Origin: an uncultured Alphaproteobacteria bacterium
Lineage (GTDB): Bacteria; Pseudomonadota; Alphaproteobacteria; Rs-D84; CACZYB01
Direction of reading: 5' to 3'
DNA length: 32,000 nucleotides
Assembly: GCA_934246625.1 (NCBI GenBank)
Contig: CAKQHZ010000002.1
Span: forward strand, 150,001 to 182,000
A program made the translations under genes and the position numbers. Below, one piece after another: positions 1 to 27,892 of the stretch. Below the pieces are notes generated by a model that was not told where the DNA came from, did no database searches, and was given only the letters and a program-made list of their open reading frames with translations. Position 1 is the first letter of the stretch. Each line of letters begins with the position of its first letter.

Positions 1-392
1 GTTTACTTGTGGATCAATTAGATGTGTCAAATAATTTTAAAATGACTGCAACAGAAGTGATGGAAAGAATAAATCAAATATCTCGTGTGTTGGGGGCAAC
101 CTATGGCAGACTTCAATCTGAATTTTTGACACCTGTGGTTATTCGTGCAATTTCTATTTTAAAAAGACGTGGTGAAATTTCAGATATACTTGTTAATGGA
201 TATGAAGTTGATTTGAAATATCAATCTCCACTTGCTCAAAATCAAATTGTTCGTGATGCAGAAAATATTTTGAATTGGATAAAAACTTTGTCAGAAGTGT
301 GTGGTGATGCAACAAGTGTTATTGATAAAAAAGCGGTTGCGTTATATTTGGGAAAAGTTTTTGGTATTTCAGAACGATTGATTTGTGCATAG
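1..392 (+). CDS. phage portal / head-to-tail connector protein, C-terminal part (5' end outside window)
   Basis: The frame is open from the left edge, with no stop before nt 9. 'MTATEVMERINQISRVLGATYGRLQSEFLTPVV' follows the xTAxE...LGxxYxRLxxExxxP pattern I associate with T7-type podovirus connector proteins. Stop TAG at 390-392. Confidence 0.55.
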   Translation, partial: LLVDQLDVSNNFKMTATEVMERINQISRVLGATYGRLQSEFLTPVVIRAISILKRRGEISDILVNGYEVDLKYQSPLAQNQIVRDAENILNWIKTLSEVCGDATSVIDKKAVALYLGKVFGISERLICA

Positions 393-402
393 TGAGGATA
401 TT

Positions 403-1281
403 ATGGAGGAAGATTTTAGCTTGCCTTTTTTGGCTGGGTTTGATGTCCTTAAAATTCCAGTTATTGAAAATGGGATTCCTGTATGGCCTGAAAAATTCCC
501 GATTGAAAAAATTGAGGAATTAAAGGTTCGGGTTGGAATGACAAAATTTTCTTCGCAAATGCTACTTAATCCTGTGCAATTAAATAAAGGGCGATTTGAT
601 ATAAACAAGTTAAAATTTTATAATTCTGATTTGTGTGTAGAGGAACATAATCACCTTTTGACCTTTACAATAAATGGTAAAAAAGTTGTCAGTTGTTCGT
701 GTTGGTGGGATCCTTCGTATGGTTCAATCGGTGGTGATGGAAGTGTTATATCTGTTGTCTTTATTGATGTGGAAGGGCATTACTATCTTCATGACATAAA
801 ATATCTTTATCATTCGGATAAGAAAAAGGAAGAAATTCAATCGGCATTGGAACAATGTCAGCAGGTTGGTGAGTTTGTTAAGGCAAACTATATACCTTCG
901 GTTTATGTTGAAACGAATGGTATTGGTAAATTTTTACCAGAGTTTTTAAGAAATGAGTTTTTGAAAATGGGAATTTCCGCTGGGGTTGTTGAAAAGGTTT
1001 CTAGGGTTTCAAAAAATCTTAGGATTTTAGATGCTTTTGATGTGATTACTTCGGCAGGATATTTATATGTTAATGAAAAGGTGAAAAATACCCCTTGGGT
1101 TGCGGAATTTTGTGATTGGGGTGTTGATTCAAAAGCTCATGATGATGGACTTGATAGTGTGGCTGGTGCAATTTCGTCTGTGCCAGCCAAGTTGCCTATT
1201 TCTGTGTTGGCAAAACAAAGAAAAGTAAGTTTTGCAGGGAAAACGTATAGGGTAAAGACAAATTTTGATATAGACTTTTGA
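403..1281 (+). CDS. phage terminase large-subunit fragment: RNase H-like nuclease domain only, ATPase domain absent
   Basis: 'CWWDPSYGSIGGDGSVISVV', 'VYVETNGIG' and 'KAHDDGLDSVAGAI' resemble the three acidic-residue motifs of TerL nuclease domains. No Walker A/B is present anywhere in the ORF. A GAGGA SD lies 5 nt before ATG 403; the ORF-track GTG at 385 overlaps the portal stop. Confidence 0.6.
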   Translation: MEEDFSLPFLAGFDVLKIPVIENGIPVWPEKFPIEKIEELKVRVGMTKFSSQMLLNPVQLNKGRFDINKLKFYNSDLCVEEHNHLLTFTINGKKVVSCSCWWDPSYGSIGGDGSVISVVFIDVEGHYYLHDIKYLYHSDKKKEEIQSALEQCQQVGEFVKANYIPSVYVETNGIGKFLPEFLRNEFLKMGISAGVVEKVSRVSKNLRILDAFDVITSAGYLYVNEKVKNTPWVAEFCDWGVDSKAHDDGLDSVAGAISSVPAKLPISVLAKQRKVSFAGKTYRVKTNFDIDF

Positions 1282-7962: not shown

Positions 7963-8622
7963 ATGTTTAAAAAATTTTTAATTTTGTTTTTTGTGATTGG
8001 GTTTGGTTTTGTCTTTGATGCTTTTTCACAAACAAGGACTAGAGCCCATTATGGACGTGGAAATGGTTTTACTTTTTCTCAAGATGCAAAGGAGCGAATT
8101 AGACTTGGTTGTCCAAATGTTTTAAGACGTGCAAATCAATTTTCAAAGGATATGAAAACAAAGGGTGCATCAAATATTGAATCTGAAATCATTTATATGT
8201 GTTCAGTTAATTCTATTGAACTTGAAAAGGGGGATTTGGGTCCATGGAAAAAATTTGTTCATGCCCTTGAAAAGGTATTTAAGCAATTCAGAAATCTTAT
8301 TTATCTTGCCGCTATATTTATGCTTCTTTGGATTATCGTAAAGGCTATGTATGAAGGTGATATGAAGTGGATGCATATTGGTATGATGGTTTTGGGTATT
8401 ACTATGCTTTCGTTTGCAGAGGTGTTTTTGGATATTGCAACCAATAGAGTTACCATAGATGATATTCGAAATAGTGAAATTTATGTTGATTGTCGTGAAC
8501 CTGATAGAGGTCTTTATATTTGTTCTGTGGATACAGATGGTGCGGTTGATAAAGAATCTGTGTATTTATATGATGTGAATCACAAGGCAACTAAAACCAA
8601 AGTCTTTAAAGGACTTTATTAG
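7963..8622 (+). CDS. hypothetical secreted/membrane protein (signal peptide plus two TM helices, several Cys)
   Basis: AGGAGA SD. Signal-like N-terminus 'FLILFFVIGFGFVFDAFSQ'. Two adjacent hydrophobic helices (LIYLAAIFMLLWIIV; IGMMVLGITMLSFAEVFL). No family recognised. Confidence 0.6.
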   Translation: MFKKFLILFFVIGFGFVFDAFSQTRTRAHYGRGNGFTFSQDAKERIRLGCPNVLRRANQFSKDMKTKGASNIESEIIYMCSVNSIELEKGDLGPWKKFVHALEKVFKQFRNLIYLAAIFMLLWIIVKAMYEGDMKWMHIGMMVLGITMLSFAEVFLDIATNRVTIDDIRNSEIYVDCREPDRGLYICSVDTDGAVDKESVYLYDVNHKATKTKVFKGLY

Positions 8623-8821: not shown

Positions 8822-9097
8822 ATGAATAAAAATGATTTAATCAATGCTATTGCAGATTCAACAGAACTTTCAAAAGTTAAAGTTGGTGAAGTTCTTGACA
8901 GCTTTGTTAATGTTATCACAAAAGCTTTGAAAAAAGGTGAAGAAGTTCGTCTTATAGGTTTTGGAACTTTTGCTGTTTCAAAAAGAAAAGCAACAAAAGG
9001 TCATAACCCAAGAACTGGTGAAGAAATTAAAATACCTGCTTCTAAACAACCTAAATTTAAAGCTGGTAAAACTTTGAAAGAAGCTGTTAACAAATAA
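8822..9097 (+). CDS. hupB: HU-family nucleoid DNA-binding protein
   Basis: 'MNKNDLINAIA', 'GFGTFAVSKRKATKGHNPRTGEEIKIPASKQPKFKAGKTLKEAVN' is the canonical HU arm. GGAGA SD. Confidence 0.95.
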   Translation: MNKNDLINAIADSTELSKVKVGEVLDSFVNVITKALKKGEEVRLIGFGTFAVSKRKATKGHNPRTGEEIKIPASKQPKFKAGKTLKEAVNK

Positions 9098-9116: not shown

Positions 9117-9147
9117 TCCCCCGCCAATCGGTTGGGGGATTTTTTTA
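9117..9147 (+). terminator. rho-independent terminator
   Basis: GC-rich hairpin TCCCCCGCC...GGTTGGGGGA followed by a T7 run. Confidence 0.7.
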
Positions 9148-9168: not shown

Positions 9169-9197
9169 TTGATATTATTCTTAAAATGAGATATTAT
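9169..9197 (+). promoter_or_regulatory. sigma70-like promoter TTGATA-17-TATTAT for cassette 1
   Basis: Hexamers at 9169-9174 and 9192-9197, 35 nt upstream of the SD-served ATG at 9232. Confidence 0.45.
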
Positions 9198-9244
9198 ACA
9201 TATAAGTTTAACCAATGAGAAAGGAAAAAATATGTTAGACAAAT

Positions 9245-10738
9245 TTGACAAAACGGGGGGGGGTAAAACAGGTAAATAATTCTGAAACTTCTCTTAAAAT
9301 CAATTCTGGTTTTAAATCAATAAAATTCGGTTTGGTTAGTTTTTTAACCATTGCAACCTTGATAGGTGCAACATCTGTAAATGCAAGTCCTCGTAGAAAT
9401 AGAAGACAAGGTAAAACAACCCTTAACCAAAATAATACAAGAATTAATGCTGGTATGACTTCTGGTTATAGTAATAAATTTTTTACAAATACTCTTATTA
9501 CATTTATGGAACAAAGACAAATTGATGTTGATACAGTTATCAATGCAGGAACAACAACAGGAATAGCTTTATTAAAGGCAGATGTTGTTGGTAATAAACC
9601 AGCATATAAACTTTGTTTCCCTTGCTCTTCTATTGTTATGAAAGGTAATGTTGAAGAAGCAACGAGTATGACTGGTGAAAAATGTTATACTTTAAAGGCT
9701 GGTGATTTTAAATCTCAAATAGTTATTCCTGCAAATGCACAAAAAACTTGTGGAGATTTATCTTCAAAACGTTTAACAATTCGTTCAAATGATGAATTTG
9801 AAACAATCGCGGATAGTGCAAATTTGGCAATAGTTCAAAATGATTTTGGTGTGGATTATGATAATATTGCTCTTTCTGAAGATACTGAAACAAAGGAACT
9901 TTCTCAAGTTTTTCTTGATGCAAAAGCAAAGGCAGTAGAGGCATGTGTAAATTCTGATTTTTCAAAATCTTATGATACTGTAAAGGGTTTATTTATTGGT
10001 TCAACTGTTGCTTCTGGTGTTGCAACTGGAACTGGTGCTGCGGGAACAGCTATTAGTGCTCTTAATATAAATAAGGGACAAAGTGCAACAGTAGATTATG
10101 ACAAACTTAAAAAACTTGTTGATGTAGATGTATCTGTGAAAGATTATTTTAAATGTGAAACAAAGAAAGCTCTTAACACTATTGTTGATACAGATGAAAC
10201 TTGTGATATTACTTCTGGAACAACAGATAGTAGTGTAAAAACTGTATTTGCTAAGGCTTTGGCAATGAAAGATTTAAACAATGAACTTTTTTCTGAAAAA
10301 TTTATGTCTTTTGTTGATAAATATAAAACTGAAACAGATGAGACTAAAAAAACAGAATATGCAAATGAATTAAAGTCAAGAAAATCTTCTTTGATTAAGG
10401 ATTTTGAAAATGTTGATGATTTAGTTGCAAATGTAGTTTCTGCACAAAAATCACTTGAAACAAAACTTTCTTTTGTGGAAGAAAATCTTATTGATAAAAT
10501 TGAAAGTGATAAAAATTTAAAGAAAAAGTATGCAATGACAGGAGCAAATATTGCTAATGTGGCTTTGTCTGGTGCAACATCTGTGTCTGGTGTAGCTACT
10601 TCTGTGATGGGATTTAGTGCTGTTGGTGAAATTGATAAACTTATCAATCGTGTAAAAGAATGTAAATCTGCAGCGTCAAAAATGTATGATGCAGGTCTTG
10701 CTCTTGAAGCTCAATTACAAGAATTAAAAGGAGAATAA
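9245..10738 (+). CDS. large secreted Cys-framework protein, paralog A (currently out of frame with its probable ATG at 9232)
   Basis: Signal peptide 'FGLVSFLTIATLIGATSVNA'. Collinear with 11266..12261 at 'SGYSNKFF/SGYNDKIF', 'YKLCFPC/YKLCIPC', 'KCYTL/SCYSL', 'EACVNS/EACTSS', 'EIDKLINRVKECK/QLDKLVSSLDKCK'. Two Gly/Ala/Ser/Thr-rich hydrophobic segments. The TTG at 9245 has no SD. Confidence 0.8.
   Translation: MTKRGGVKQVNNSETSLKINSGFKSIKFGLVSFLTIATLIGATSVNASPRRNRRQGKTTLNQNNTRINAGMTSGYSNKFFTNTLITFMEQRQIDVDTVINAGTTTGIALLKADVVGNKPAYKLCFPCSSIVMKGNVEEATSMTGEKCYTLKAGDFKSQIVIPANAQKTCGDLSSKRLTIRSNDEFETIADSANLAIVQNDFGVDYDNIALSEDTETKELSQVFLDAKAKAVEACVNSDFSKSYDTVKGLFIGSTVASGVATGTGAAGTAISALNINKGQSATVDYDKLKKLVDVDVSVKDYFKCETKKALNTIVDTDETCDITSGTTDSSVKTVFAKALAMKDLNNELFSEKFMSFVDKYKTETDETKKTEYANELKSRKSSLIKDFENVDDLVANVVSAQKSLETKLSFVEENLIDKIESDKNLKKKYAMTGANIANVALSGATSVSGVATSVMGFSAVGEIDKLINRVKECKSAASKMYDAGLALEAQLQELKGE
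9255..9263 (+). repeat. homopolymeric G9 tract (candidate slipped-strand phase-variation switch)
   Basis: Nine consecutive G, the longest G/C run I can see in this AT-rich window. It lies between ATG 9232 (AAGGA SD, 6-nt spacing) and the 497-codon ORF, which sits in a different frame. Confidence 0.85.
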
Positions 10739-10739
10739 T

Positions 10740-11141
10740 ATGAAAATTTCCAAAATAGTTTTAATGGCTGTTGCAATGTTTTCTTTGACTGCAAATGCAA
10801 ATACTAAATTTACAGTTAATGATAAAGATGCAGCAGAATATTGTAAAAATTTAGATGTTAATAAAATTGAAAAACTTAAAAGTTTGGCTACAACCTCTGC
10901 TATTGGTGGAGTTGTTGGTGCTGCTTCTGGTGCATCTGGAGTTGCGACTTCTTTGATAAGTGGTTCAAAACTTTCTGATGAAAAAGGTAAAAAAGGACTT
11001 GATATTGCAACCACAATTACCTCTGGTTTAGGGGCAACAGCTGGAATTATGTCTGTGTCAACCAGTGGTGCTGGGCTTGCTGAAATTGAAGGTATCTTTG
11101 ATACAATCAATAAATGTAAGGAAAAAATGTCAAAAATTTAA
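10740..11141 (+). CDS. small secreted Gly/Ala/Ser-rich hairpin protein, paralog C (partner of A)
   Basis: AAAGGAGA SD; the start is 2 nt after the stop of A. Signal peptide 'VLMAVAMFSLTANA'. 'AIGGVVGAASGASGVATSLISG' - charged loop - 'ITSGLGATAGIMSVSTSGAGLAEIEGIFDTINKCK'. Paralogous to 12273..12704. Confidence 0.8.
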   Translation: MKISKIVLMAVAMFSLTANANTKFTVNDKDAAEYCKNLDVNKIEKLKSLATTSAIGGVVGAASGASGVATSLISGSKLSDEKGKKGLDIATTITSGLGATAGIMSVSTSGAGLAEIEGIFDTINKCKEKMSKI

Positions 11142-11163
11142 TTATTATTTCGTCTTTTTTATA

Positions 11164-11200
11164 AAAACAAACTCTTCGTTTTGAGGGGTTTGTTTTTTTT
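11164..11200 (+). terminator. rho-independent terminator (imperfect stem)
   Basis: AAAACAAACTC...GAGGGGTTTGTTTT hairpin with a small bulge, followed by a T run. Confidence 0.55.
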
Positions 11201-11265: not shown

Positions 11266-12261
11266 ATGAAACAAAAAGTTAGTTTAGTTTCTTTGGCTTT
11301 GCTTCTTGCCTTTACATCTGTTGATGCAGGTGCAAGGGTTTCTCGTTCAAGACATGCTTCTTCAAAGAAAATTAGTTCAGGTTTGGTCTCTGGATATAAT
11401 GATAAAATTTTCGTTAATCCATCAATCACATTGATTGAAAAGCGTTCTATTGAACTTGCTCCACTTATCAATGTTGGTGAAAATGGTATCGGAAAAATTA
11501 CAAGAAAAGCAGATGGCACAGAGCCATATTATAAACTTTGCATACCTTGTGCAAATATATTCTTAGAAGCAACTTTGGCTGATGGAAGTTTTAAATCTTT
11601 GACTGCTAATGGAAGTTGTTATTCTTTGGAACCTGGTGCAAAATATACTATTGCAACAGCTGATGGTGCAATTAACACTTGCGGTTCAAAGTTAAGAATG
11701 ACAATCAATGATATGAGAAGTGCTGCAAAAACAGAAGTTGATAGTGTTGTTTTAAATCTTCTTCCAAACAGCAGTGCTTATGATTACACAAATATTCAGC
11801 TTGGTCAAGATACTTTGATGACAGATTTGATTACTGATTATAATGATGCAAAACGTGAAGCGATTGAGGCTTGCACTTCTAGCAACATTATGGAAACATT
11901 GGATATTATCAAAGGTTGGATGATTGCTTCTGTTTCAGGAAGTGGTGTTGCAACTGTAACAGGTGCTACTGATACTGCTTTTCAAACTATTGAAACTGTG
12001 AAAGGTGATACTAAAGTAGGAAATGGTGTTCTTCAAGGGACATTGTCAGCAGTAAGTGCAACAGGTAATACTTTGTCAATGACTGGTGCAATCGTTTCTG
12101 CAGTGCAACTTGATAAACTTGTTTCAAGTTTGGATAAGTGTAAAAAAGCTGCTCAAAAAATGAACAATGCTGGTGTTGCTTTGGAATATGGATTGGCTGA
12201 CTTGATGTCTGCTGATGAAAGCAATGTTAAAACATCAACAGAAACAAAAACTGAAGAATAA
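11266..12261 (+). CDS. large secreted Cys-framework protein, paralog B
   Basis: GGAAAGGA SD. Signal peptide 'LVSLALLLAFTSVDA'. Same conserved Cys positions and motifs as paralog A, but lacks A's central ~150-160 aa charged insert. Confidence 0.85.
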   Translation: MKQKVSLVSLALLLAFTSVDAGARVSRSRHASSKKISSGLVSGYNDKIFVNPSITLIEKRSIELAPLINVGENGIGKITRKADGTEPYYKLCIPCANIFLEATLADGSFKSLTANGSCYSLEPGAKYTIATADGAINTCGSKLRMTINDMRSAAKTEVDSVVLNLLPNSSAYDYTNIQLGQDTLMTDLITDYNDAKREAIEACTSSNIMETLDIIKGWMIASVSGSGVATVTGATDTAFQTIETVKGDTKVGNGVLQGTLSAVSATGNTLSMTGAIVSAVQLDKLVSSLDKCKKAAQKMNNAGVALEYGLADLMSADESNVKTSTETKTEE

Positions 12262-12272
12262 AGGAGTTTAAT

Positions 12273-12704
12273 ATGAAAAAATTATTTATACTTATGTTTT
12301 CATTATTATCTGTTGCTGTAAAAGCAGAAAAGCCAGTTTTCCCAAGATATACTGAAAATGAAAAGGCAACAGTTAATCATTGTAGAGCAATTAATACTTC
12401 AAAAATAGAAGAAATCAAAGGAAGAATGATTGCAGTTGGTGTTGTAAGTGGTATTAGTGCTGGTGCAAATACTTATTCTGCTGTTGTTAACTATGCTAAA
12501 TTCGATAAGGCAGGAGCTGATGCAGATGAGAAGAAAAAAGCCTCAGCTACGGCTCACGGAATTGCATCAAATATTGCAACTGGTGTGGCTGCGGCTGGTT
12601 CTATTACTTCTACTGGTTTGACTGGTGCAAGTTTGGCAGATTTGGAAAACATTATTGATAATGTTAAAAAATGTCAAAGCGGTTTAAACTCACTTAGCTA
12701 TTAG
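12273..12704 (+). CDS. small secreted Gly/Ala/Ser-rich hairpin protein, paralog D (partner of B)
   Basis: AAGGAG SD. Signal peptide 'LFILMFSLLSVAVKA'. 'NHCRAINTSKIEEIK', 'AVGVVSGISAGAN', 'IATGVAAAGSITSTGLTGASLADLENIIDNVKKCQ' are collinear with 10740..11141. Confidence 0.85.
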   Translation: MKKLFILMFSLLSVAVKAEKPVFPRYTENEKATVNHCRAINTSKIEEIKGRMIAVGVVSGISAGANTYSAVVNYAKFDKAGADADEKKKASATAHGIASNIATGVAAAGSITSTGLTGASLADLENIIDNVKKCQSGLNSLSY

Positions 12705-18806: not shown

Positions 18807-19087
18807 TATTTAAAATCCTTTCAATTATTTATAATTAAAAATTATATCATAAGGTAATTAAGTTAGCTATAAAAAAATAATTACATTATTTATCTTTATT
18901 ACATAGTTAAAATATAAGATGAAAATTGAAATTTTTATTAAAAAATTTACTGATTGATAAAAATTTTTCTTATTCTTAAAAGATATAACTTTGTAAAAAA
19001 TATAGTAAAATCAAATACAAGGTTCAATTATTTAACAGAACTTTTCTTATCCCCCACGATAAGAATATCTTCCTCTTGTATTTCTTC

Positions 19088-19542: not shown

Positions 19543-20136
19543 ATGATTTATGGATATATTCGAGTTTCAACAGAACAGCAAAATACCGAAAATCAATATC
19601 ACGAAATTTTAACCTTTGCAAAACATCAAAATTTAATTATCAATAAATGGATTGATGAAGTTATTTCATCAAAAAAATCACTTAAAGAAAGAAAACTTGG
19701 CAACCTTTTAAAACATCTTAAAAAGGGTGATATTTTGATTGCATCAGAGCTTTCTCGACTTGGTAGAAATCTTTTGGAAGTCATGGGAATTTTACAAAGT
19801 TGTTTAGAAAAAGATTGTCAAATTTGGACCATAAAAGAAAACTATCGTTTGGGTTTGGATATTCAATCAAAGGTGCTTGCTTTTGCATTTTCTTTGGCTG
19901 CAGAAATTGAAAGACAACTTATTTCTCAACGAACAAAAGAGTCGTTGAAACGGTTAAAAGATGAAGGCAAACATCTTGGTCGTCCAATAGGTTTTGCGCA
20001 TAAAAAACTTGATTCAAAATGTGATGAAATAAAAGAACTTCTTTCAAAAAATATTTCCAAAGCCGAAATTGCACGACTTATGAATTGTTCGTGGATTACT
20101 TTACATCGATATATACAAAAAAGGAATAAAAGATAA
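19543..20136 (+). CDS. serine recombinase, small DNA-invertase type (Mpi-like)
   Basis: 'MIYGYIRVSTEQQ' contains the catalytic Ser. Also 'ASELSRLGRN', 'NYRLGLDIQSKVLAFAFSLAAEIERQLISQRTKESL' and a C-terminal HTH 'ISKAEIARLMNCSWITLHRYI'. At 197 aa, its length and central motifs match my recollection of Bacteroides Mpi-family invertases. Confidence 0.85.
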   Translation: MIYGYIRVSTEQQNTENQYHEILTFAKHQNLIINKWIDEVISSKKSLKERKLGNLLKHLKKGDILIASELSRLGRNLLEVMGILQSCLEKDCQIWTIKENYRLGLDIQSKVLAFAFSLAAEIERQLISQRTKESLKRLKDEGKHLGRPIGFAHKKLDSKCDEIKELLSKNISKAEIARLMNCSWITLHRYIQKRNKR

Positions 20137-20162
20137 GATATTCTTATTGTGGAAGAGTTTGT

Positions 20163-24820: not shown

Positions 24821-27649
24821 CTATTCAAACAAATCTGTTTTTATTTCAGATGAGGGAGAAGAAGTTGTTTCTTCTGTTTTTGTTTCAACAGGAGTAGGTG
24901 TTGTATCTTCTGATGTTGGTGCATTGTTATCTTGTGTGATTGTTTCACCTTCATCTTCATCATCATTTTCAGCAATGATTGCAGCGGATACAACCTTTTC
25001 ATCTTCGGCTGTTTTAAACAAAGTTACACCCATTGTTTGACGACCAGCAATACGGATTTTATCAACGCCAAGTCTTATCATCTTTCCACCATCTGTTACC
25101 ATCAAAATGTTATCGGTGTCAAGAACAGGGAATGATGAAACGATAGCCTTTGTTTTATCAGCAATCTTTATGTTTGCGATACCTGAACCACCACGGTGTG
25201 TTGTTCTGTATTCATAAGATGATGTGCGTTTTCCGAAACCTGTTTCACTTACGGTTAAGATGAATTGTTCCTTTGATTCAAGAGCTTTGAATTCGTCTTC
25301 GGATAAAGTCTTTGTTGTTTCAAGAACTTCTTCACCTTCTAAATCTTCAAATTCTGTGTGGCGAAGAGCACGTGAAAGTTTTAAATAAGCTGCACGGCTA
25401 TCTTGGTCAACATCTACGTGATTGATTATTGACATAGAGATAACTTTATCGCCATTTTCAACTTTGATACCCTTGATACCTGTTGAATTACGGCTTTGGA
25501 AGACACGAACTTCTGGAACAGGGAAGCGGATACATTTTCCACCACGAAGTGTCAAGAATACATCTTGGTCTTCACGACATGGCTTTACAGCGATAAGCTC
25601 ATCACTTTCCTCTTCAAACTTCATTGCGATTTTTCCGTTTTGACGGATATTTAAGAAGTCAGAAAGTTTGTTTCTTCTTACGGTTCCCTTTGATGTTGCG
25701 AACATTACATAAAGTTTTTCCCATTCGCTTTCATCTTCTGGAAGTGGCATAATTGTTGAAATTGTTTCACCTTGTTCAAGTGGAAGAAGGTTAATTAAAG
25801 CCTTTCCTACAGATTGAGGGGTGCAAAGTGGAAGTTTATATACCTTCATTTGATATGCAATACCCTTATTAGAGAAGAATATAACTGGTGTATGTGTGTT
25901 TGCAACAAATACATCGGTTACGAAATCTTCTTCCTTTGTATTCATACCGGTTCTTCCCTTTCCACCACGATTTTGAGCTTTATAAACATTTAATGGAACA
26001 CGTTTGATATAGCCAGTGTTTGTGATTGTGATAGCCATATCTTCACGAGCAATTAAATCTTCTAAATCTGTTTCAAGTTCAGATGGAACAATTTCAGTTT
26101 TTCTTGGGGTGCCGAATTTTTCTTTTACTTCTAATAATTCGTTCTTTAAAATACCCATAAGTTTTGCTTTGTTCAAAAGAATTGATAAGAATTCTTGGAT
26201 TTCAAGACCTGTTTGTTTGATTTCTTCGGCAAGTCTGTCTTGTTCCAAACCAGTAAGTCTGTGAAGTTTCAATTCAAGAATTGCTTTTGCTTGGGCTTCT
26301 GATAAACGATATGTTCCATTGACAATTTTGCTGTCTGGGTCATCGATTAAGTCAATTAAAGCCTGCATATCAGTTGCTTTCCAATCACGAGCCATAAGTT
26401 TATCCTTTGCATCGATTGGGTCCTTTGCATTACGGATAAGGTTTATAACATCGTCAAGGTTTGCAACGGCGATTGAAAGTCCAACTAAGATATGAGCTTT
26501 GTTTCTTGATTTATTAAGTTCAAATGTAGTTCTTCTTCTTATAACCTCTTCACGGAATTCTATAAATGCGTCAAGTATTTGCTTTAGGTTCATAAGTTCT
26601 GGACGGCCCTTGTTAATTGCAAGCATATTGATACCAAAACTTACTTGAAGTTGAGAATATTTGAAAAGTTGATTTAAAACGACATCTCCGTTTGCATCTT
26701 TTTTAAGTTCGATTACAACACGGACTCCTTGACGAGAAGATTCATCACGAATGTCTGAAATGCCTTCAATACGTTTATCCTTTACAAGTTCGGCGATTTT
26801 TTCAATCATAACCTTTTTATTTACTTGGTATGGGATTTCATCAACTATGATAGCTTGTTTTGTGCGAACTTCTTCAAAATGAGTTTTTGCACGAATAATT
26901 ATTGAACCACGGCCTGTTGTAAATGCAGAATATGAACCAGAAAGTCCAAGGATTAAACCTCCCGTTGGAAAATCAGGAGCAGGAACATATTTTATTAAAT
27001 CTTCTGATGTTAATTCAGGATTGTCAATTACAGCACAACATGCGTCAATAACTTCGCTTAAGTTGTGGGTTGGAATATTTGTTGCCATACCAACAGCGAT
27101 ACCGCCACTTCCGTTCACAAGAAGGTTAGGAAATCTTGCTGGTAAAACTTCTGGTTCCTTTGTTGATTCATCATAGTTTGGACGCCAGTCGATAGTTTCC
27201 TTGTCCAAATCTTCGACCATATATGCGGCAGCCTTTGACATTCTTGCTTCGGTATAACGCATAGCAGCGGCACTATCTCCGTCCATAGAACCAAAGTTTC
27301 CTTGTCCATCAACCATTGTTATGTTCATTGAGAAATCTTGGCTCATACGAACCATAGCATCGTAAATTGCAGCATCACCATGTGGGTGATATTTACCCAT
27401 AACATCGCCGACTACACGAGCAGATTTTCTGAAAGGTTTTCCATATTCAAATCCGTTTTCCTTCATAGAATAAATAATTCTTCTGTGAACTGGTTTTAAA
27501 CCATCGCGGACATCAGGAAGAGCACGAGATATAATAACACTCATTGCGTAATCAAGATATGATGTTTGCATTTCGTGAACGATAGGTGCAATTTTGATGC
27601 TTTTATCAACGTTATTTATTCCATTTTCGAGATTGTTTTGATTATCCAA
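24821..27649 (-). CDS. gyrA: DNA gyrase subunit A
   Basis: '[28 protein letters not shown]', '[16 protein letters not shown]', 'AMRYTEARM' (catalytic Tyr), C-terminal beta-pinwheel repeats and an acidic tail. The probable start is TTG 27649, 6 nt after AAGGAGA. The ORF-track TTG at 27673 would put that SD inside the gene. Confidence 0.93.
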
Positions 27650-27892
27650 TTTTATTCTCCTTTTCGTTATCAATCTTATAGGCTAATCCTAGCAATTTTG
27701 TGTTTTAATTGCAAGGAAAAAAGACATATTTTTTTTGATTTTTAAAGAGAAAAAATCAATCTTTTTTATTGTGTAAAATCAACGTGTTAAAAATGTAAAT
27801 TTTTCTTGATTTTTCGTTTTTTTTATAACAAAAATTATTTTTATAAAAAATAGGGCGAATCTTTGCAGAATCGTTTCTATTTTTTATTAGTT

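Follow-up and report, generated by a model that had tools for sequence, protein, structure and literature searches.

The DNA analysed here, a 32,000-nucleotide stretch of contig CAKQHZ010000002.1 from an uncultured alphaproteobacterium (the window), carries downstream of an HU-like gene (8822-9097) a long open reading frame (ORF) for an orphan protein with a predicted signal peptide. An uninterrupted run of nine G residues (G9) lies early in this gene, ahead of the signal-peptide region; a small predicted secreted partner follows, and beyond it a paralogous two-gene cassette (Table 1). The original prediction, made from the sequence alone, held that the G9 run separates the long ORF from a start codon with a Shine-Dalgarno (SD) motif, and that it is a slipped-strand phase switch of a surface protein, currently OFF.

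What had been read directly from the letters of this site was confirmed throughout. ATG 9232 is served by an AAGGA motif, and the end of a promoter-like TTGATA-17-TATTAT element lies 35 nt upstream of it. Read from this ATG, the frame terminates after 15 codons; the 497-codon ORF occupies the next frame, where its own start, TTG 9245, has no SD, the closest AAGGA being 19 nt off. The sole further in-frame start ahead of the mature protein, TTG 9332, falls within the signal peptide. Removal of one G (G8) joins ATG 9232 to the long ORF and gives a protein of 501 amino acids starting MLDKFDKTGGVKQVNNSE..., addition of two (G11) gives one of 502 amino acids, and with G10 the ATG frame closes after 11 codons. 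As had also been claimed, the signal peptide is encoded downstream of the tract, and the paralogous cassette lacks a tract altogether, with no G or C run of at least 5 at its start. The site thereby resembles contingency loci in having in its 5' coding region a G/C run long enough to be unstable (at least 7-8 residues), in which a one-unit change toggles between a full-length product and an early stop.

Table 1. Features of the tract-bearing gene and its surroundings (coordinates of the window)
Feature	Position	Strand	Remarks
Intrinsic terminator of the upstream HU gene (predicted)	9117..9146	+	C5 stem, loop, G5 stem, T7
Candidate sigma-70-like promoter, TTGATA-17-TATTAT	9169..9197	+	10/12 consensus matches
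SD motif AAGGA	9221..9225	+	6 nt spacing to ATG 9232; same motif and position as in the paralogue at 11266
SD-served ATG	9232-9234	+	Read from the sequence
Short frame from ATG 9232, G9 state	9232..9279	+	Reads MLDKFDKTGGGKTGK, stop at 9277-9279
497-codon ORF	9245 (TTG)..10738	+	+1 frame relative to ATG 9232
G9 homopolymer	9255..9263	+	Codons 8-11 counted from ATG 9232
Predicted signal-peptide coding region	9314..9385	+	KSIKFGLVSFLTIATLIGATSVNA, then SP; read from the translation; conserved in homologues
133-amino-acid predicted secreted partner	10740..11141	+	Own SD; begins 2 nt past the large-ORF stop
Terminator-like hairpin, end of first cassette	11163..11197	+	
Paralogous cassette	11266..12704	+	331 aa (11266-12261) and 143 aa (12273-12704); without tract and N-terminal extension

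With a GC content of 31.6%, the window holds no other G or C run longer than 5 in its 32 kb, and the number of runs of at least 9 expected in it is 0.006 for independent, identically distributed nucleotides and 0.015 under a first-order Markov model. The usual ribosome-binding arrangement here is AAGGA(G) placed 10-13 nt 5' of the ATG; some 60% of genes in the window have it, among them all three other genes of the two cassettes. The promoter-like element is invariant across five aligned loci. Upstream of it, the predicted HU-gene terminator, with its C5 (9118-9122) and G5 (9134-9138) stem arms followed by T7, isolates the tract-bearing gene from transcription coming from upstream. Between strains, the homopolymers of this terminator differ in length (C5 or C6 in the stem, 9118-9122; T7 or T6 in the tail, 9140-9146), and so does the spacer between SD and ATG (9226-9231, A6 or A5), which changes the SD spacing from 6 to 5 nt.

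Tract length and allelic divergence in public assemblies

The comparison draws on assembly consensus sequences of human-gut metagenomes, including Hadza and Nepal samples, and contig counts by N-terminal form cover 15 of the 37 cluster members, namely those listed. Among 5.8 billion sequences, homologues of the protein form only four clusters at 90% identity. Cluster members fall into length classes, the N-terminus being the sole difference: proteins of 497/498 amino acids starting MTKRGG... or MTKLGG..., of 501 starting MLDKFDKTGGV..., of 468/469 starting at an internal TTG, of 496 starting MTKQGV... and of 413 starting MGVKQ.... The 501-residue "ON" protein predicted for a G8 version of the window (MLDKFDKTGGVKQ...) is on record exactly (P0006). 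The window's own 497-residue protein (P0005) appears in the cluster table, but an exact look-up of its contigs returned no record. Gene callers accordingly give the gene three N-termini (497, 501 and 468 amino acids) depending on tract length, which is also a practical warning, in that the annotated N-terminus follows the length of the tract.

At the DNA level, the segment ending in ...GACAAAAC is followed by G9 in the window and in two further loci (L001, L002), by G8 in L018 and by G10 in L015 and L016. On a second background the run is preceded by a T, giving T-G8 (L005, L006), T-G7 (L007-L013) and T-G9 (L014, L017); one locus has A-G6, in the third frame (L004), and in another everything following ...GACAA is swapped for ATGGGGG (L003). 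The variation in length is found on DNA that is otherwise the same. Eleven loci that stem from different samples and different projects (Hadza, Nepal and others) show no difference over 400 nt upstream and about 1800 nt downstream, and their tracts, T-G7 in seven, T-G8 in two and T-G9 in two, occupy all three frames. Similarly, L018 (G8) is separated from the window (G9) by one G and by a single difference in 2200 flanking positions. One identical 467-residue core allele occurs with four N-terminal forms (MTKLGG... on 21 contigs, MLDKFDKTGGV... on 17, the internal start on 11 and MTKRGG... on 3), and single sequencing projects contain differing tract lengths. Length polymorphism among near-identical genomes, far above the background substitution rate, is a hallmark of contingency loci. 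Because miscalling at such a rate in consensus sequences is not credible, the tract must mutate orders of magnitude faster than its surroundings; on the evidence of these assemblies, it is a real, hypermutable length switch. The comparison of related strains and metagenome-assembled genomes (MAGs) that had been proposed alongside the original prediction thus yielded the variants looked for, G8, G9 and G10 as well as T-G7, T-G8 and T-G9 on otherwise identical DNA, and supports its central claim of a slipped-strand switch. Exact-pattern scans of the 5' region with a variable gap gave no match in the genome or metagenome contig collections, and a related-locus search with P0007 found no relative in the genome contig collection, from which the species, or this gene, is thus absent.

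The body of the gene is variable as well. Between the window and L001 it differs by 10.4%, with nonsynonymous (dN) and synonymous (dS) divergences of 0.090 and 0.163 and a dN/dS of 0.55, whereas 9 of 11 flanking genes differ by 0-1.3% (for rmuC, dN is 0 and dS 0.009); its divergence is thus at least eight times that of these nine. The paralogue (11266-12261) differs by 3.5% in the same comparison, again faster than 9 of the 11 flanking genes, and its dN/dS of about 1.3 suggests diversifying selection on a second predicted exported protein. Among the allele-structure proteins examined (P0004, P0021 and P0024-P0029), P0021 and P0024 are mosaic recombinants between the two main allele groups, and in the 413-residue allele group a stretch of about 84 residues is missing from between two VDYD motifs, most members of this group having ATGGGGG in place of the tract. 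This pattern of divergence is typical of an exposed and targeted protein, as the product presumably is.

The protein, its partner and the distant homologues

The large protein is predicted to carry a 30-residue extension ahead of a classical signal peptide (KSIKF-GLVSFLTIATLIGATSV-NA, then SP). It further comprises a β-rich N-domain that contains Cys, a helical region and two hydrophobic segments rich in Gly, Ala and Ser, each with a Cys-containing helix beside it; four cysteines are invariant. None of the four cassette proteins matched Pfam, NCBIfam or PHROG. An AlphaFold2 model of the large protein, built on a 13-sequence alignment, was poor (predicted local distance difference test score, pLDDT, 57; predicted template-modelling score, pTM, 0.35), with a β-rich domain at residues ~80-200 (block-mean pLDDT 67-86) and a long helical region. 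Foldseek comparison of this model with the PDB gave no match at E ≤0.001, and a profile search of PDB sequences returned coiled-coil noise only. The small ORFs of the two cassettes, encoding 133 and 143 residues, correspond to a free-standing version of the Gly/Ala/Ser-rich, Cys-helix module. In a distant clade the large protein itself carries this small module as a C-terminal fusion (P0040, residues 196-303 and 343-431), which points to a functional pair of large and small proteins and suggests a two-component exported system.

An exhaustive profile search covering 1.84 billion representatives returned only 15 family members, of two types. Homologues of the paralogue type (P0033-P0037) lack a tract and begin with MNKKIS.... 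Three distant homologues (P0040, P0041, P0043) share 19-23% identity and have N-termini that are either truncated or read Arg-Gly-Gly; they come from other gut alphaproteobacterial MAGs and lie in a different context, adjoining rodA-pbp2-mreC. Their DNA has the same build as the site in the window: an SD-served ATG, 6-8 codons, a G9 or G10 tract and then TAAAT. In L019 a G9 tract is in frame; in L020 and L021 G9, and in L022 and L023 G10, leave the gene out of frame, so that G8 or G11 would be required. L022 retains the window's ATGTTAGACA opening. The fourth lineage, P0044 and P0045, is represented by a 440-residue protein (the ON form, '...HPMGGVNS...') with a Gly-Gly(-Gly) N-terminus, and the same allele also occurs as a 408-residue form beginning at an internal Met. 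ON and OFF forms of the tract are thus found beyond the window's own lineage.

These homologues bear on the start codon and on the tract itself. In the proteins of the distant clade and of the 440-residue lineage, the internal Met shortens the signal peptide to only about 11 residues. Translation must therefore really start at the upstream ATG, which would make the switch all-or-none for export. When out of frame, the distant homologues have no alternative long-frame start upstream of the signal peptide, and TTG 9245 therefore looks incidental to the lineage of the window. In every lineage both out-of-frame readings reach stops 1-6 codons past the tract. As expected of a contingency locus, homologues of at least four diverged lineages carry the tract at a matching position; that a run of G8-G10 persists at one position while the codons around it diverge argues for selection on the tract itself.

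The host and other features of the window

The neighbouring genes include rmuC, def, fmt, truA, dut, gyrA, ftsK, kdsA/kdsB, a proteobacterial-type dnaQ and a gene for a MipZ/ParA-like ATPase. GyrA (24821-27673, minus strand) is 99-100% identical across dozens of public contigs from many human-gut samples, and its nearest named relatives are 'MAG: Alphaproteobacteria bacterium' (91%) and 'MAG: Rickettsiales bacterium' (78%). Such near-identity across samples marks the species as very clonal, unlike its variable tract-bearing gene. Judged by these genes, the source is an uncultured, low-GC, highly clonal, Rickettsiales-like gut alphaproteobacterium.

Elsewhere in the window, 19543-20136 (plus strand) encodes a serine recombinase of 197 amino acids that matches the 'master DNA invertase Mpi family' best (E 4e-81), its 271.5 bits falling short of the cut-off of 272. 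This gene and about 470 nt preceding it are enclosed by an 18-nt inverted repeat (19054-19071 and 20135-20152, 94% complementary). Phase variation by DNA inversion may thus occur in this genome as well, or the element may be a small mobile or invertible one. An ORF at 385-1281 (plus strand) matches the C-terminal part of phage large terminases (NCBIfam NF033889, E 3e-35; phrog_38, E 5e-34), pointing to a remnant prophage at the window's left end. Upstream of the cassettes, with the HU gene in between, an ORF of 219 amino acids with a signal-like N-terminus (7963-8622, plus strand) has a weak, below-cut-off Pfam match to TrbC/VirB2 pilins (E 4e-4). An Rfam scan of the window found two transfer RNAs only, both far from the G9 tract.

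A candidate slipped-strand switch and its alternatives

We propose, at a probability of roughly 0.8, that G9 is a slipped-strand (simple-sequence-repeat, SSR) contingency switch in the 5' coding region of an orphan secreted-protein gene. Translation would begin at the SD-served ATG 9232, and the ribosome would meet the G tract eight codons on; slippage during replication would add or remove one G and in this way set the reading frame. In ON states (G8, G11 or T-G7), the ATG would be joined to the 30-residue extension, the signal peptide and a mature protein of ~450 residues. In OFF states (G9 or G10), a peptide of 15 or 11 residues would be made, ending at stops 1-6 codons past the tract, with at most weak expression of the G9 state via the SD-less TTG 9245. 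Because G9 leaves the ATG frame stopped early, the window copy is probably off or low. The product would be a fast-diversifying exported protein that acts with the neighbouring small protein, and stochastic on/off expression could allow a clonal gut population to evade agents targeting it, for instance host antibody or phage. The 133-residue partner has its own SD, although its expression might drop by polarity in the off states. The tract, its frames, its length polymorphism on identical backgrounds, its presence across species and the diversification of the gene are observed, whereas reversibility, rate, expression levels, surface location and the selective agent are inferred. Two terms of the original prediction are accordingly kept in weakened form: 'currently OFF' holds insofar as the copy is in a non-ATG frame, and beyond that assumes that TTG 9245 is a poor start; 'surface protein' is in line with the signal peptide, the conserved cysteines and the strong allelic diversification, with surface exposure and function remaining putative for a protein of no recognised domain or fold.

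Several observations weigh against a strict switch of this kind. Among the listed cluster members, the TTG frame (G9, T-G8) is found on ~65 contigs, the ATG frame on 20 and the third frame on ~31, although contigs are not independent samples; that the TTG frame is the commonest could mean that it is not truly off. Interrupted, shorter tracts occur in non-ATG frames with the ORF intact, namely A-G5 in the TTG frame (P0010, 7 contigs) and the A-G6 allele in the third frame. In the 413-residue allele group, ATGGGGG supplies a new in-frame ATG that lacks a well-placed SD, and translation of the long ORF may not strictly need ATG 9232. The same observations favour graded control, in which some protein would be made even in the G9 (TTG-frame) state, through TTG 9245 itself or by reinitiation behind the 15-codon leader, so that expression would be high, low or none according to frame and the window copy 'low' rather than 'off'. 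It would fit this scheme that the A-G5 allele is fixed in the TTG frame, that the ATGGGGG alleles seem to use a start overlapping the stop of the leader ORF, and that an SD is absent in ~40% of the window's genes anyway. Nevertheless, TTG 9245 lies 19 nt from the SD, inside the frame initiated at the ATG, and the distant homologues have nothing equivalent to it when out of frame. We regard graded control as rather unlikely.

Three further explanations were rejected as the main one, each being unlikely. That the tract has a fixed true length, such as G8, and that all other lengths are sequencing or assembly miscalls draws on the error-proneness of G/C homopolymers of 8-10 and on the 2-3x coverage of several contigs, a low depth that also counts against the slipped-strand switch. 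It is the least credible of all, since three lengths recur on two backgrounds (G-n and T-G-n) in dozens of contigs from several projects and assemblers, one project holds different lengths, length variants include contigs at 6x and 19x coverage, a separate lineage shows the same polymorphism, and a consensus miscall rate of ~50% is implausible for Illumina assemblies. A chance tract acting as a neutral mutational hot spot in a decaying gene, its frameshifted copies being pseudogenes, would be in line with most copies being out of frame with the SD-served ATG and with a tiny, lineage-restricted family. The ORF of ~1.5 kb, however, has stayed intact whatever the frame state or allele, the dN/dS of 0.55 is not 1, the tract has held its position in at least four diverged lineages while flanking codons changed, and stops await both out-of-frame readings within 1-6 codons; decay is thus very improbable. 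We give as little weight to constitutive recoding, in which G9 would be read by programmed +1 frameshifting or transcriptional slippage without any DNA change. Long homopolymers permit slippage of both RNA polymerase and tRNA, and GGG-to-GGG re-pairing would be perfect in the +1 frame, yet the shift site has no slow codon, stop codon or stimulatory SD. Programmed ribosomal frameshifting is further marked by a stimulator and by DNA that is fixed across strains; no stimulator was seen in the sequence here, and the DNA is not fixed. Since its length varies among clonal copies and in-frame DNA versions exist, recoding is not needed to explain the locus, and it would at most make the OFF states leaky.

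The slipped-strand switch that we favour is a device of a known kind. Its closest analogue is badE of Bartonella krasnovii, another alphaproteobacterium, in which nine G residues early in the ORF of a trimeric autotransporter adhesin form a contingency locus that toggles during rodent passage; gain or loss of one G frameshifts the gene, natural isolates vary between ON and OFF, and the SSR is conserved (PMC11466379). Both loci have their nine-G run early in an ORF for an exported protein. They differ in that badE encodes a recognisable adhesin with experimental evidence of switching, whereas the present case involves an orphan family in an uncultured organism, comparative evidence only, and a tract that precedes the signal peptide, at a distance of only 8 codons from the start. 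In Campylobacter jejuni, intragenic poly-G/C tracts switch genes for surface structures in the gut (PMC8355987, PMC3025981). That genome is likewise AT-rich (~30% GC), so that G8-G11 runs stand out; it holds tens of such tracts, mostly in glycan-modification genes, as compared to one in 32 kb here, in a gene for a predicted structural secreted protein. Homopolymer switches are also established in Neisseria (PMC5084427, PMC5320596), where phylum and protein are unrelated and rates and phenotypes have been measured. In Neisseria pilC, reportedly described by Jonsson and colleagues in 1991, poly-G in the N-terminal or signal-peptide region of an exported protein likewise gives translational on/off control. 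A multi-start switch at Haemophilus influenzae lic1, reportedly described by Weiser, Love and Moxon in 1989, is the model for graded control, in that a 5' repeat sets the frame with alternative starts and gives strong, weak or no expression; it uses a tetranucleotide, (CAAT)n, and documented alternative ATGs, as opposed to a homopolymer and an SD-less TTG as second start.

It is from cultured pathogens that phase variation through repeat slippage is well known; records of it in gut commensals or symbionts that remain uncultured are, to our knowledge, scarce. What appears to be new is the host, the orphan two-part family and the fact that the switch is conserved across species. Its state can be read straight from public metagenome assemblies, in which clonal copies from different people stand in different frames. 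It thereby offers a concrete, testable way into an orphan family that probably supplies the main variable exported antigen or receptor of the organism. A wider reading is possible, though we hold it to be doubtful: the poly-G switch may be ancestral to the whole lineage, as part of an undescribed exported system made up of a large protein and a small Gly/Ala/Ser-rich one, and may be the main source of surface variability in a near-clonal gut species that is distributed globally. That system would be confined to uncultured, Rickettsiales-like Alphaproteobacteria in the gut of humans and rodents, with the partners fused in sister lineages, and the switch would have three levels, the ATG frame being high, the TTG frame low and the third frame off. 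If this holds true, the ON/OFF state in public metagenomes would be readable as a record of host or phage pressure.

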